Below, in pieces: positions 9,905 to 26,384 of a stretch of DNA of 47,928 nt. The stretch is from IMG/VR virus record IMGVR_UViG_2541047918_000003. One strand, given 5' to 3'. Under the pieces are notes generated by a model, which was given only the letters and a program-made list of their open reading frames with translations, did no database searches and was not told the DNA's origin. Each line of letters starts with the position of its first letter. Positions within the stretch are counted from its first letter, which is position 1. The stretch comes from a virus (lineage: Duplodnaviria > Heunggongvirae > Uroviricota > Caudoviricetes). The translations under genes were made by a program, and so were the position numbers.

Positions 9905-12900
9905 TCAGGCACTGCATAATCCTCCGTCCCGACGTGATGACTGCATAATTGACACAACCCTGCTGTCGATCAGATCCACCAGTCCCTTGGCTGACTGCGT
10001 ATCTATCTCGCCATTGCTCCCTTTATTCTGAATACTGATGTGATATACGGGAGAATAAACAAATCCACCGCCACCATTCACATTGCCAATGGCTCTGACT
10101 CCAAGAGAGCCGTCCGCTGCCCGAGTCAGTGGCATGATAGCTTCAGGCCCGGCCTCGCCCATCAGCCCGGCACCTTTCGCAAAAGCAAAATACGTCGGGG
10201 TATCCACAATGGTGTTACTGTAAGCACTCAGATTTGCCGATGTATAAACACCACCTTTTGCGTTTGCCACTGCACCGGAAAGCCAGTCGCCGACTGTACC
10301 AAGCCATCCTCCGGCACCGGACATGCTTTTGGAAAGTGACTTCAGCCCGTTAACGATGGCAGCGTTCATCAGAATTTTTGAAACTTCCTGGAGAATTGAA
10401 CTCCCCCAGTTTCTCCAGTCCACAACATTTCCGGCCAGTGCATCGGAAATATTTGATACCAGCCCGTCCATCGTGGAAACGACAGCATCTGCCGCCTGCG
10501 AAGCATAATCGGTGGCACTGTCTGCCCAGTTCGTCAGCCCCTCTTTGAGCCCGGCATTCCAGTTACTGCGTAAAGCATCAGCCTTTACATAATAATCCTG
10601 CTGATCGCTGAGACGCTCTTCCAGATATTTTTTATTCAGCTCTTTCTCCTGTTTCCACAGGGCTTCTTCAATTTCTCCGGCCTGATACTGTCTCAGTAGC
10701 TCGTTATTTTTCTGCTCAAACTCCTGCCGGATGCTCCACATTTCCTGAAGTCGTTCACGCATCCGTGAGCCTTCACCATATCCCAGTAACTGAGCCTCAT
10801 TTGATGCTCTGACACTGGCATTACTGTCCGCCAGACTGCTCTCATACGCAGCAAGCTGCTCACGAATCTTTTTCTGGTCGATAAGTGCTGCATTCTGCAA
10901 AAGCGTTTTTTTCTGCGCTTCTGACAGGGTTGATAATTCGCCCTGACTGACCTGATATTTCATCTTAGCCAGTTCAGTATTCTGCCCTGCCAGTGCTATC
11001 TGTTCTTTTTGCTGTTTAATCAGCCGTTTATAAATATCCTCTGTTTTTTCCGCTTCGGTCTTTTTATGCGCTTTGGGTTTATTTGCCTGGTTATTTCGCC
11101 ATGCATCCAGTGAGTTATTTATATAATTCAGTCTTGCTGTCTGATACGCCTCTCCCACAAATCCGAGATCATCCGCAGCATAACCCAGGCGGGCACGCTC
11201 ACGAGCTTCCCCCTTCAGGCGGGACAGAGCCAGTTCGCGCTCGCTGTTATTCAGTGCGGTCTGCTGTTTATCATCCAGGGTTGCCTGTGGTAGCCGTAAC
11301 GGTACATTCACCAGCCCCTGTCGCTGCTGAAGTAATTCATTACCGAGCCCGAGAAGGCGATTAAACTCGGTATGCTGCCCATTCATGATCAACAGGGACT
11401 GATACGCTTTGTTTTGTTCCGCTGCCTGTTGACGGATCAACGCCACCCGTCGCTCCTCCAGCCCGGCAAGCACATCCTGAATGGATTGCGCTTTGCCCTG
11501 CATTTGAGTGAGGCGAGACTGTTCAACTGCCAGTTGATTTGTTGCTTCTGCAAGCCCTTCTGTGACAGTTTTTACCGACGTCATGTGGTTAATCATAAAA
11601 CCGTTATCGGTTGTCCAGCCCGGGTTTGCCAGCACATACTGATAGCCAGCAATTTTTTCCTGTAAGGATTTAATCTTACTTTTCTGCTCGTCAATTAACC
11701 TGTTTTGCTCCTTCAGTGCCTGTCGCGTCTTTTCCTCATTATCTGACGCTTCAGGAAGCGACATTGCCGACGTTTTCTGGCGAATTTCGTCGATTGTTGC
11801 GGCATACTGGCGTGCAGATTCTCTGGCCTGCTCCTGATTCTGATACATCGTGTACCAGGCCGCAGCCCCCAGCATGACGAGTCCCGGCACACCACCAACC
11901 AGCCCCAGCGCGCCACTTAATAAACGACTCCCCACTGACGTAACATTATTCAGCGTTGTCTGTGCCGCTGTTCTGGCCGCAATATTACGGGTAAGTGACA
12001 CCTGGGCAGCTGTCAGCTTCGCTTCTGCTGCGGCCTGCCTTTCGGTACCGCGAGCAGCAACAACCGCCTGTTGCGCACGATAAACCGCCGCACGCGCCCT
12101 GGCGGTTGCTATCTGTGTCCCCCGAAGTTGCACTTCAGCAAGAGCCACTTCGTTTCTGGCTGCAGTAATTAATCCGGCAGTTGCAGATCCAGCAGACGAC
12201 GCCATATTGCCAAAATATCGGGCTACCCCGACGGCAACCAGAGCACCAGCAGCGGTTGCCACGGTGTCAATATTGCCTGCAATACCATTCAGCACACCGG
12301 AGAGCGTCTTCGTCACTCCGCTTGCCTCGTTCGCACCACCAACCCAGGCCATAAAGGCGTTTTCAACTTTGGTTGCAGAGGATGAAACCGTATCAGGCAT
12401 TGCTGCATATTCATCACGCAACGCCCCAAGCTGACTAATCAGTGCAGGAACAACCTTATCGGCGGTCAGTTTTCCGTTATCCGCCATGGCCTTCAGATCC
12501 TTACGGGCAACCCCCATTCCCGCAGCCAGCGCACGAATAACACGATCGCCGTTCTCATTCACCGAGTTAAACTCTTCACCGCGCAGCACTCCCTGCGCCA
12601 GTGCCTGACTGAACTGCGTGATCACCGAACTGGCTTCTGCTGTACTGGCACCGGATAATTTCAGGCCCGTGGAGATCGCCTCGGTGACTTTCAGTACCTC
12701 CTCAGAACTGTAACCATACTCCCGCATGGAAGCTGCAGAACGGGCAAAAAGGCTGGCGTTATCAGAAAACGCCGTCCCCGTTCTCTGGCTGATCGCCATT
12801 AATTCACGCTGTGATGACTGAAAATCATCACTGGACTGTGAGGCCTGCTTCAGACGGGCATTTACTGAATTCCACTCATCAGCGAGAGAAATAAGATGAC

Positions 12901-13150
12901 CGGTAGCAAAAGCCCCGGCAAATGCCCCCGCCATGTTCAGTGCCGAAGATTTAGCTGTATTTATCTGATCCGTCACTTCTGCCAGTGCACGCCGCATTTC
13001 ACGGGATGCAGCAGCGGACTGTCGGCCTCCGTTCTGCATGGTACGGTAGTAATCCTGCCCCATACGCGAAGCCCGGGAGATCTCTGACTGGAATGACCGG
13101 GAATTTGCCGAGATTTTAATAATCAATTCACGTAATGTCGCCACACTCAT
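9905..13150 (-). CDS. H: tail tape measure protein H
   Basis: 1081 aa; coiled-coil-rich; position between G/GT and M. Confidence 0.85.
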   Translation of the reverse strand: MSVATLRELIIKISANSRSFQSEISRASRMGQDYYRTMQNGGRQSAAASREMRRALAEVTDQINTAKSSALNMAGAFAGAFATGHLISLADEWNSVNARLKQASQSSDDFQSSQRELMAISQRTGTAFSDNASLFARSAASMREYGYSSEEVLKVTEAISTGLKLSGASTAEASSVITQFSQALAQGVLRGEEFNSVNENGDRVIRALAAGMGVARKDLKAMADNGKLTADKVVPALISQLGALRDEYAAMPDTVSSSATKVENAFMAWVGGANEASGVTKTLSGVLNGIAGNIDTVATAAGALVAVGVARYFGNMASSAGSATAGLITAARNEVALAEVQLRGTQIATARARAAVYRAQQAVVAARGTERQAAAEAKLTAAQVSLTRNIAARTAAQTTLNNVTSVGSRLLSGALGLVGGVPGLVMLGAAAWYTMYQNQEQARESARQYAATIDEIRQKTSAMSLPEASDNEEKTRQALKEQNRLIDEQKSKIKSLQEKIAGYQYVLANPGWTTDNGFMINHMTSVKTVTEGLAEATNQLAVEQSRLTQMQGKAQSIQDVLAGLEERRVALIRQQAAEQNKAYQSLLIMNGQHTEFNRLLGLGNELLQQRQGLVNVPLRLPQATLDDKQQTALNNSERELALSRLKGEARERARLGYAADDLGFVGEAYQTARLNYINNSLDAWRNNQANKPKAHKKTEAEKTEDIYKRLIKQQKEQIALAGQNTELAKMKYQVSQGELSTLSEAQKKTLLQNAALIDQKKIREQLAAYESSLADSNASVRASNEAQLLGYGEGSRMRERLQEMWSIRQEFEQKNNELLRQYQAGEIEEALWKQEKELNKKYLEERLSDQQDYYVKADALRSNWNAGLKEGLTNWADSATDYASQAADAVVSTMDGLVSNISDALAGNVVDWRNWGSSILQEVSKILMNAAIVNGLKSLSKSMSGAGGWLGTVGDWLSGAVANAKGGVYTSANLSAYSNTIVDTPTYFAFAKGAGLMGEAGPEAIMPLTRAADGSLGVRAIGNVNGGGGFVYSPVYHISIQNKGSNGEIDTQSAKGLVDLIDSRVVSIMQSSRRDGGLCSA

Positions 13151-13160
13151 TCTCCGGACG

Positions 13161-13182
13161 AAAAAAAACCGCCGAAGCGGTT
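13161..13182 (-). terminator. terminator-like hairpin between GT and H
   Basis: AACCGC TTCG GCGGTT followed by T8 on the minus strand, directly upstream of the H start. Confidence 0.35.
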
Positions 13183-13190
13183 ATGTTGAC

Positions 13191-13879
13191 TCACTGAGAC
13201 ACTATTAAAAGCGCGTTTTCCAGTCCAGCAAATGGATCTGATACGCCTTCTGTCTGCTCCTTCTCCCACTGAAGAAGCGCATCATTCAGTGGCACTTTGA
13301 CCCCCTGCGCACCGTAAACAGCTGAAACAATCTGGGCAGCCCGGATATCAGCCCGTTCGTCCCCCAGCGGGCTGAACCTGTCAAATTCTGCCCACATCAT
13401 GATTTCTGATGCGGACATTTCCCGGCGTAACTCTGACAATGTGCGCCCCATCCTGAGCGCCAGCATCATCAGAAAACGCATCCCCGGAAGCGCTACTTTT
13501 TTTTAACCTCGCCGGCATCACTGATTAGTTCCAGAGACTGCCGAAGAAGCCGCGCATGCACCGGGCCATACACGGCAATCACCTGTTCACGATCATCCTC
13601 TGAAAATACAGGTTGCAGTCCGGTATCACACAGAACATCGATGAACAGTTCAACATCCGCTTCCAGATTTCGGCGGGCGCGCTCCGCAACGGATAACGGT
13701 GTCTCATCATCTTTTGCTTTAACGATCTCCTGCCAGCGCAACCAGGCTTCTGCAGAAGGTTCCCGTAATACAACCGTTGCCCCTTCCCATTCAGGCACAT
13801 CAACAGTTTTATGGCGAAACCCCGACATCGTTGCCAGTGCCAGATTACGGATATTTTTAGTCATCACATCTATCCTCAT
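13191..13879 (-). CDS. T: tail assembly chaperone GT fusion, made by a -1 programmed frameshift
   Basis: T-frame ORF (13191-13481) is in the -1 frame relative to G; slippery A AAA AAG sits immediately before the G stop. Confidence 0.65.
13493..13879 (-). CDS. G: tail assembly chaperone G
   Basis: 128 aa; ends VKKK-stop; start overlaps the V stop (TAATG). Confidence 0.75.
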   Translation of the reverse strand: MRIDVMTKNIRNLALATMSGFRHKTVDVPEWEGATVVLREPSAEAWLRWQEIVKAKDDETPLSVAERARRNLEADVELFIDVLCDTGLQPVFSEDDREQVIAVYGPVHARLLRQSLELISDAGEVKKK

Positions 13880-14583
13880 TAACTGACGGTAACAGTGCAG
13901 GAAGTAGAGGTCACTTTGTTAACCGGGCTTGCTGAATCAGAAATCTCGCAGGTATATGCACCCGCATAACCGGATACTGCCGATGCCTTACTGAACGTTG
14001 CCGCCGTCTGTCCGGAAACAGGAGAACCACCTTTCTTCCAGACATAAGAATAAGGCGGCACACCACCCGCAGCCTCAACCGCCATTTCAAGTTTCGATCC
14101 GGAAGCAACCCGCAGCGTGCTTTTTAAATCGACCTTCACTTTCAGCGGCTCTGTCGTCAGCACAGGTTTACCTTTCAGGCGCAGAGAAAACGTTGCAGCC
14201 ACAACACCATTGGTTCCTGCAGACCAGGTATGCTGACGCACCTCTGCCATAAAGGTAAATCCGTTGCCTGACGGAAAAATAACTTTAAAGCCATACGTGG
14301 TGTCATTGTCATAGGCACTGCGCAACGCGTTCTGGGCAGCATTGAGGTAAAAGTTGCCTGACATGGAAATCTCTGAAGCAGCACCAAGGCCGTTAATATT
14401 TTCCTGCTCAACAGAACACAGCGTGGTGACATCAATATCCTGCTTTTGTCCTGCAGTAAACTGCACCTCTTTGATTGTACAGCTCAGGCCAAGATAGCTG
14501 GCAGAATCCAGGGTTTCTGCTGTTACCGGTGCAGACGAAATCATAATTTTCGTCAGTTGCGAACGCTCAAAATTAGAGGACAT
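13879..14583 (-). CDS. V: major tail protein V with C-terminal Ig-like domain
   Basis: MSSNFERSQ... start with GGAG upstream; Ig-like C-terminus (...YTCEISDSASPVNKVTSTSCTVTV). Confidence 0.8.
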   Translation of the reverse strand: MSSNFERSQLTKIMISSAPVTAETLDSASYLGLSCTIKEVQFTAGQKQDIDVTTLCSVEQENINGLGAASEISMSGNFYLNAAQNALRSAYDNDTTYGFKVIFPSGNGFTFMAEVRQHTWSAGTNGVVAATFSLRLKGKPVLTTEPLKVKVDLKSTLRVASGSKLEMAVEAAGGVPPYSYVWKKGGSPVSGQTAATFSKASAVSGYAGAYTCEISDSASPVNKVTSTSCTVTVS

Positions 14584-14596
14584 ACTCGTCTCCTGA

Positions 14597-14622
14597 AAAT
14601 AAAAAACCCGCCAGCGGCGGGT
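14597..14622 (-). terminator. terminator-like hairpin upstream of V
   Basis: ACCCGCC/GGCGGGT stem followed by T6ATTTT on the minus strand. Confidence 0.4.
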
Positions 14623-14642
14623 GGGTAAAATCATTAACGACC

Positions 14643-25283: not shown

Positions 25284-25360
25284 TGGCGCGTTGTACTGGA
25301 TTCGAACCAGTGACCGATTGCTTAGAAGGCAATTGCTCTGTCCGGTTGAGCTAACAACGC
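25284..25360 (-). tRNA. argO: tRNA-Arg (anticodon UCU)
   Basis: 77 nt; cloverleaf; anticodon loop CTTCTAA; T-arm GGTTCGAATCC; encoded CCA. Confidence 0.85.
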
Positions 25361-25373
25361 AGGGTACAGATAA

Positions 25374-25450
25374 TGGACCGCCATCGAGGACTCGAACCCC
25401 GCGCAACCAGCTTCGAAGGCTGGCGCTCTATCCTGATGAGCTAATGGCGG
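25374..25450 (-). tRNA. argN: tRNA-Arg (anticodon UCG)
   Basis: About 77 nt; anticodon loop CTTCGAA; T-arm TTCGAGT; CCA end; exact 5' end uncertain by 1 nt. Confidence 0.75.
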
Positions 25451-25457
25451 TATGTGA

Positions 25458-25533
25458 TGGTGGCCCTTGCTGGATTTGAACCAGCGACCTGGCGATTATG
25501 AGTCGCTCGCTCTCACCACTGAGCTAAAGGGCC
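25458..25533 (-). tRNA. ileZ: tRNA-Ile2 (anticodon CAU, lysidine type; would also score as Met)
   Basis: 76 nt GGCCCTTTAGCTCAGTGG...CTCATAA...GGTTCAAATCC...GGGCCACCA; close to E. coli ileX as recalled. Confidence 0.85.
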
Positions 25534-26003: not shown

Positions 26004-26384
26004 TTACTTTTTTAGCAGCCAGTCGTCCATCTCCAGTCTTACCCCCAGCACAGACAAACATCCGTCAATAAACCCTTCGGCTATCTGCATCTCAATTCGT
26101 ATTGCTTTTTCGCTTTTCTTTCTCGTCCTGGCTATCTGTCTTTTTGATATTCGCAACAAATAATGAGCAATGAGAAGCGAATACTCCTCAGGTTTTTTCT
26201 GCTTCAGACGAGCAAGACAGTTTTCAATGATAAGTCCGTCATCATCGCAGCAGGCCGGACGTGGTTTAGTGGCAGATGGTAAAAGTCCTTTGAATCCGGC
26301 AGCGATCGGAGAATAGTCCACCCCGGTGTTACCACTTGCAGCCCATGCCCCCCAGCGTTCAAGAACCATCTGAATATCACGCAT
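26004..26384 (-). CDS. late antiterminator Q (small Q family, QuuD-like)
   Basis: Starts MRDIQMVLERWGAWAA...; ATG at 26384 with GGAGAAAG upstream; the track ORF starts at an upstream TTG. Confidence 0.7.
   Translation of the reverse strand: MRDIQMVLERWGAWAASGNTGVDYSPIAAGFKGLLPSATKPRPACCDDDGLIIENCLARLKQKKPEEYSLLIAHYLLRISKRQIARTRKKSEKAIRIEMQIAEGFIDGCLSVLGVRLEMDDWLLKK

Follow-up and report, generated by a model that had tools for sequence, protein, structure and literature searches.

Does the junction of two overlapping reading frames just ahead of the tape measure gene of this tailed phage yield two separate proteins, or a short protein and a longer fusion produced from it by frameshifting? 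A preliminary description of the window (the whole stretch of 47,928 nucleotides that was analysed) had favoured the latter, proposing a lambda-like G/GT pair expressed via a -1 frameshift at A AAA AAG, and this proposal is supported by the anatomy of the junction, the Pfam families on either side of it, the colinearity of the predicted product with the HK97 fusion and the conservation of the slip site. Our reading, held with high confidence, is that the locus belongs to an HK97-like lambdoid E. coli prophage and encodes its pair of tail assembly chaperones, G and GT, with a programmed -1 frameshift at A_AAA_AAG. At the DNA level, the locus matches Escherichia phage PhiR49_2 with 100% identity and phages Evi and phi467 with ~97%, and among 5426 complete E. 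coli genomes 902 carry it, in each case on the chromosome.

Anatomy and neighbourhood of the G/T junction

The longest open reading frame of G extends from 13879 to 13493 on the minus strand and begins five codons upstream of an ATG at 13864. The latter, preceded by GAGGA at a distance of 8 nt and given (as its equivalent) as the G start in public annotations of identical DNA, is the likelier start codon, and the N-terminus of G aligns with that of HK97 gp13. From this ATG, the tail assembly chaperone gene G (13493-13864, minus strand) encodes 123 aa followed by a TAG stop, and its 3' end reads GAG GTT AAA AAA AAG TAG. The slippery heptamer A_AAA_AAG (13496-13502, minus strand) is in phase, with AAA AAG representing the last two Lys codons of G, and it belongs to a run of eight A's (A8; 13497-13504, minus strand), where RNA polymerase might also slip at a low level. 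On the minus strand, the heptamer (13502-13496) is directly followed by the G stop codon (TAG, 13495-13493) and directly preceded by a TAA in the -1 frame (13503-13505). The two frames are jointly open across 10 nt only, corresponding to the A8-G run, so that a shift yielding a fusion must fall inside the run of A's.

The T frame spans 13502 to 13191, with a first ATG at 13481 and further ATG codons at 13469/13466, and its computed offset relative to G is -1 on the minus strand ((13879-13481) mod 3 = 2). Thus, both the relative frame of T and the position of the heptamer immediately before the stop codon agree with what had been described. Read after the slip, the T segment (13191-13496, minus strand) translates as VALPG plus 96 aa, then TGA, and the predicted GT fusion comprises 123 + 101 = 224 aa. 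Any -1 slip within the run would produce the same junction, ...GEVKKK-VALPGMRFLMML, with three Lys residues, because eight A's and one re-read base make up 9 nt; the junction proposed earlier ('...VKK then VALPG') corresponds to a raw reading of the -1 frame and is one Lys short of the correct KKK.

By itself, the heptamer is a frequent word: AAAAAAG occurs in 23 copies in the window on both strands (vs. 11.8 expected from shuffles), and three copies are in phase (X_XXY_YYZ) within an open frame 80 or more codons long. Of these three, the G/T site alone is continued by a long -1 frame (101 aa, carrying a Pfam domain), and a chance co-occurrence of the heptamer with the G/T junction was considered and ruled out by the comparative data. 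The second in-phase copy, likewise followed by a stop (CTA AAA AAG TAA, 26004-26013, minus strand), is located where the gene for antiterminator Q (PF06530, 1.6e-52) ends; here a -1 slip would add only four residues (VKND) and is probably inconsequential. The third falls within an open frame on the plus strand, one that probably does not represent a gene. Three clustered prophage tRNA genes (Arg-tct, Arg-tcg and Met-cat; 25284-25533, minus strand) are found just downstream of Q, a placement similar to that seen near Q in many lambdoid and Stx prophages; as this cluster has no tRNA-Lys, the slip site would be read by the single tRNA-Lys of the host.

Both frames have clear family assignments. 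G matches Pfam PF06222 (Phage_TAC_1; E=2.8e-58, 195.7 bits vs. a gathering cutoff of 25), and T matches PF06223 (Phage_tail_T; E=4.3e-19, 69.1 bits vs. a gathering cutoff of 25.9) over 13209-13415 (minus strand, -1 frame), i.e., residues 30-98 of the 103-aa translation from 13502. Directly upstream of G is the gene for the major tail protein (13879-14634, minus strand), which carries a C-terminal Ig-like domain (Pfam Ig_2), has sub-threshold Pfam matches to Phage_TTP_11 and Phage_tail_2 and is annotated as major tail subunit in relatives. Tail completion genes (HK97 gp10-like and gp17-like) are found further upstream of it. Directly downstream of T is the tape measure gene (9905-13150, minus strand; Phage_HK97_TLTM 2.1e-93, TMP_3 1.1e-57, Tape_meas_lam_C 5.3e-14). 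The resulting minus-strand order (major tail, G, T frame, tape measure) fits the G/GT-type layout for which lambda is the paradigm.

A consensus scan revealed a terminator-like hairpin followed by a T-run (AACCGCTTCGGCGGTT; 13159-13182, minus strand) between the T stop and the tape measure start. A second hairpin of this type with a T-run (14606-14622, minus strand) is found at the 5' end of the longest major-tail open reading frame. Putative terminators at positions equivalent to these, including just upstream of the tape measure gene, are also annotated in the HK97 and HK446 records, where they flank morons, whereas in the window T and the tape measure gene are not separated by a moron. The gap between these two genes is a mosaic insertion point: the 19KM1863 E. 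coli prophage has an extra gene for a zinc-ribbon protein there (L004, 1816-2157), and HK97 has the gp15 moron (L091, 1704-1892).

The predicted fusion and its conservation among relatives

The predicted fusion aligns with HK97 GT by BLASTP at 64% identity over all 224/224 aa and without gaps. The HK97 protein used in this comparison was reconstructed from the sequence of its record (NC_002167), where the CDS takes the form of a join of two pieces with the remark 'translated due to a -1 frameshift'; the homologous pair in the HK446 record is also annotated as a joined CDS, as is 69/69' in the record of Bcep176. The fusion also matches phrog_14766, the PHROG of full-length, HK97 gp14-like GT fusions, over residues 1-220 of its 224-position profile (E=3.4e-92), and this match is colinear across the junction. 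In NCBIfam, no model matches the GT fusion.

Public annotations of the locus take a different form. In all seven inspected records (PhiR49_2, Evi, Stx2 phage 1717, HK542 and three RefSeq E. coli genomes; L001-L005, L089, L095), G and T appear as two unjoined CDSs, and T begins at an ATG equivalent to 13481 or 13469 under the name 'phage tail assembly protein T' or 'DUF4035 domain-containing protein'. Probably, the T start codons given in these records are unused; the practical value of the present analysis lies in this annotation gap, i.e., in a 224-aa GT product that is missing from all seven.

A comparative data set of 73 loci, each from a different GTDB species (including Enterobacter, Serratia, Xenorhabdus, Proteus, Providencia, Yersinia, Pantoea, Orbus and others), was retrieved with an alignment of six related G proteins. 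An in-phase A_AAA_AAG within the overlap of G with the -1 frame is present in 45 of the 73 species loci, which makes it the commonest slippery site in the HK97-like G family, and in 32 of these 45 the heptamer adjoins the stop codon as it does in the window. G_GGA_AAG is found in five loci, and a further 21 have the tetramer A_AAG only, including the HK97-type G_GAA_AAG and the Klebsiella/Pantoea-type GCA AAG TAA. Overall, A_AAG at the G/T overlap is shared by 71 of the 73 loci (it is disrupted in two), and in at least 45 of the 73 it is set directly against the G stop. The same element is retained over large distances: Burkholderia phages whose G is 29-33% identical keep an in-phase A_AAA_AAG, located 30-33 nt before the stop and falling at the homologous KK column of the G protein alignment. 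Across relatives, both the phase and the position of the slip site are thus kept down to these distant G proteins. The length of the A-run at the site, which varies from A3 to A9 among relatives, is not conserved.

Conservation of the -1 peptide bears on the alternative implied by the public annotations, namely, that no recoding occurs and T is an independent protein of 92-96 aa translated from the ATG at 13481 or 13469, perhaps through coupling with termination at the G stop, 11 nt upstream. ATG codons do exist (13481 and 13469/13466), T is a separate CDS in the seven inspected annotations (PGAP and phage records alike), and a Met (the M of an FLM-type motif) is present in all 64 relatives that have this motif. 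Against an independent start, neither ATG has a well-spaced Shine-Dalgarno sequence (GGGG adjoins the ATG at 13481, and GGGGA is ~12 nt from 13469), and the position of the first ATG is occupied by GTG in one near-identical locus and by ATT in the 19KM1863 prophage. Of the 73 species loci, 69 have a -1 frame that stays open between the slip site and T, and the LALRxGR motif of T is likewise encoded in the -1 frame in 69 (one locus has it in the +1 frame). Moreover, the peptide that follows the slip codon has the consensus V-x-x-P-x-x-x-F-L-M-x-L-A-L-R-x-G-R-T-L, in which the distance from the slip codon to FLM is seven residues in 52 of 64 loci (6-8 in the remainder), a Pro three to four residues past the slip is kept in 58 of 64, and in 40 of 64 the -1 peptide has no Met ahead of the one in FLM. 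In these 40 loci, the conserved Pro and Phe of P-x-x-x-F-L-M come before any Met codon, and their spacing from the slip is fixed, which is unexpected in an untranslated spacer and is what would be expected of a fusion rather than an independently started T. Together with the annotation of the HK97 and Bcep176 homologues as fusions and the synthesis of lambda T solely as GT (PMC5009743), these observations make an independent T extremely improbable and argue for the G/GT frameshift.

At shorter evolutionary range the data are less informative. The GTTAAAAAAAAGTAG sequence is invariant in 84 near-identical loci (44 distinct G-T DNA sequences), which have 24 variable third-position, apparently synonymous, sites elsewhere in G, but this invariance alone is not significant: it is weak because it concerns only the third positions of three Lys codons, compared to ~20% variable third positions in the rest of G. 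A scan of IMG/VR with the G protein yielded 80 loci, all with 100% identical G and hence uninformative for deep conservation; their use was confined to the test of invariance among the 44 DNA variants.

Several relatives depart from the common arrangement. The full heptamer is lost, leaving GCA AAG followed by TAA, in loci from Klebsiella/Raoultella (L093, L115, L116, L119) and Pantoea/Erwinia (L130, L134, L135, L138, L139), in several of which both frames are open over 10-16 nt; any GT still produced by these relatives would depend on single-tRNA A_AAG slippage beside the stop. Serratia sp. L9 (L125) has its T motif in the +1 frame when counted from the matched frame of G. The loci of Leclercia (L111) and Ca. 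Symbiopectobacterium endolongispinus (L154) look truncated or frameshifted, reflecting either decaying prophages or assembly errors.

Proposed slippage and its possible stimulators

In the mechanism proposed here, most ribosomes would make G (123 aa) and stop at TAG, while a minority would move back by one nucleotide, with tRNA-Lys on AAA and AAG of A_AAA_AAG re-pairing in the -1 frame. The slipped ribosomes would continue through the codons GTA GCG CTT... to give a 224-aa fusion, ...GEVKKK-VALPGMRFLMMLALRMGRTL..., and the C-terminal T domain would be made only as a part of GT, never alone. That such a shift takes place in vivo is what we infer from the sequence. The intrinsic properties of the site are favourable: A_AAA_AAG, which is also the dnaX site, is among the most shift-prone heptamers in E. 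coli, whose single tRNA-Lys pairs better with AAA than with AAG (PMC5009743). The adjoining stop codon may additionally aid the shift by slowing A-site decoding. By analogy with lambda, where the G:GT ratio is about 30:1, G binds the tape measure and T recruits the major tail protein (PMC5009743), G and the G part of GT would coat the tape measure protein and the T part would recruit the major tail protein. Given such lambda-like roles of G and T, the frequency of shifting would set the G:GT ratio that tail assembly needs.

Since the shift would occur on a homopolymeric run, its origin could also be transcriptional: stuttering of RNA polymerase on the A8/T8 run, adding one A, would generate an A9 mRNA encoding the same ...VKKKVALPG... 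protein. Polymerase slippage of this kind could act alone or beside ribosomal slippage, and the two products are indistinguishable at the protein level. The run in the window has eight A's, runs of A8-A9 are also present in some relatives (L102, L105-L110, L168, L170), and bacterial RNA polymerase slips efficiently in vivo on nine A's or T's, as exploited in Thermus dnaX (PMC5009743). However, eight A's fall below the nine reported for efficient slippage, many relatives have runs of only A6-A7, and 21 of the 73 loci have A_AAG only, with three A's (GCA AAG TAA, or the HK97 G GAA AAG). In the short-run relatives polymerase slippage would be unexpected, yet the G/T arrangement and spacing are unchanged, and the features that are conserved, phase and the AAG codon, are a ribosomal signature. 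Because the architecture is retained in relatives whose runs have three to seven A's, the conserved mechanism appears to be ribosomal; we regard the transcriptional alternative as very unlikely, and in the A8 allele transcriptional slippage may at most make a minor contribution.

The search for RNA elements that might stimulate ribosomal slippage yielded little. In cassettes of the dnaX/IS911 type, a stimulatory hairpin or pseudoknot starts about 5-9 nt 3' of the heptamer, and the SD-like element of dnaX is located about 10-14 nt upstream. In the window, the 45 nt past the heptamer fold at -11.4 kcal/mol, which is no better than shuffles (z=+0.29). A stronger hairpin starting ~22 nt downstream (z=-2.1 in a 70-nt folding segment) overlaps the conserved LALRMGR codons and is absent from more distant relatives. 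Overall, in a fold search for hairpins, no convincing one was found within 45 nt 3' of the heptamer in the window or its relatives. Strong hairpins near the site were seen in two distant relatives, HK022 and a Halomonas phage. No upstream SD-like stimulator of the dnaX/IS911 type was found either, the sole GAGG ending 4 nt from the heptamer (SD-like stimulators were sought 6-17 nt upstream by Sharma et al. 2014; PMC4066793). A Shine-Dalgarno-like GAGGA/GGAGGA motif about 7 nt 5' of the slip site in the distant relatives Bcep176, Serratia OS31 and Halomonas H4907 (L088, L094, L096) stems from conserved Glu-Glu-Ala codons; its counterpart in the window is the GAGG at 4 nt.

As no strong stimulator was found, a low frequency of shifting is expected, probably a few per cent or less in vivo. 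Published -1 shifting on AAAAAAG is 0.29% unstimulated, 4.3% with the IS911 stimulators and 39% with the IS3 pseudoknot, and the respective values for GGGAAAG are 0.28%, 3.8% and 43% (PMC4066793, Table S3); with measured rates so alike, the two heptamers are functionally interchangeable. Within the G family, the near-universal shift element is A_AAG alone, with AAA, GAA, GCA or GGA as the P-site codon, and no conserved RNA stimulator was found. One tentative and rather doubtful idea is that the G:GT ratio is tuned jointly by the P-site codon, the adjoining 'shifty stop' and, in A8-A9 alleles, RNA polymerase slippage; if true, the natural alleles would constitute a graded series of frameshift efficiencies. 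The 'shifty stop' itself is a classical idea that reportedly goes back to Weiss et al. in 1987. The family survey (A_AAA_AAG, G_GGA_AAG and A_AAG-only classes) could, in addition, help to train frameshift predictors.

Comparison with known systems

The HK97 gp13/gp14 pair shares with the window the Pfam families of both parts, the gene order and an HK97_TLTM-type tape measure, and in both phages a G part of 123 aa is joined to a T part of 101 aa by a slip at a homologous codon. The difference is in the site itself: the HK97 sequence, G_GAA_AAG, allows only A-site (A_AAG) re-pairing and its G runs five codons further, whereas the window has the full A_AAA_AAG heptamer adjoining the stop.

With lambda, the window shares the genomic position of the pair, the -1 direction of the shift, a slip on ...A_AAG near the end of G and the Pfam family of T (PF06223). 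The lambda heptamer had been given as G GGA AAG, and this was confirmed in J02459, where G_GGA_AAG (GCG GGA AAG) occupies 10109-10115, 15 nt before the G stop. That the heptamer in the window is a different one is true but not noteworthy, A_AAA_AAG being the majority site of the family and equally shift-prone in E. coli. Lambda GT has 279 aa vs. 224 aa for the window GT. By sequence, lambda G, which we take to be a member of Pfam Phage_TAC_2, and the G of the window belong to different families. Because BLASTP of the window G and T against lambda G and T gave no significant similarity, the kinship with lambda is carried by the Pfam domain of T and synteny only; the two G/GT pairs are presumed, by analogy, to have the same function, and the chaperone roles assigned here to G and GT are those we infer by transfer from lambda. 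The lambda G/GT frameshift was reportedly treated by Levin, Hendrix and Casjens in 1993 and further by Xu, Hendrix and Duda in 2013 and 2014, and the tail assembly chaperone frameshift of tailed phages by Xu et al. in 2004.

The dnaX gene and the IS911/IS3 cassettes use the identical heptamer, A_AAA_AAG, and the same single tRNA-Lys. What sets these systems apart is an SD-like element before the heptamer and a hairpin or pseudoknot 3' of it, which raise shifting to 4-50% and neither of which is convincingly present in the window. In dnaX, moreover, the shifted product is the shorter one, whereas in the window it is the longer one.

A direct precedent is provided by the ECs1801 type of E. coli O157 Sakai and Stx phages, in which A_AAA_AAG likewise makes up the last two codons of G and is followed by TAG. 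Cluster A_AAA_AAG_25 of Sharma et al. 2014 comprises 53 prophage genes with ECs1801, a 'tail assembly chaperone', as the type (PMC4066793), and is marked [true], i.e., a 'safely inferred' frameshift (PMC4066793, Tables S3, S4, S6). Its motif is at codon 124 of a 124-aa gene, the shifted product has 226 aa, and the cluster is scored 'N' for SD and 'potential' for a hairpin (PMC4066793). Stx2 phage 1717 is taken here as representative of this type; its G shares 68% identity with the G of the window and also ends in AAA AAG TAG, with AGA AAA AAG (an A6 run) in place of the AAA AAA AAG (A8) of the window. Thus, the kind of element, its heptamer and its placement are already known and published for E. 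coli prophages: the G/T junction of the window is real but ordinary and, as biology, carries little weight beyond adding one more case of the conserved tailed-phage chaperone frameshift.
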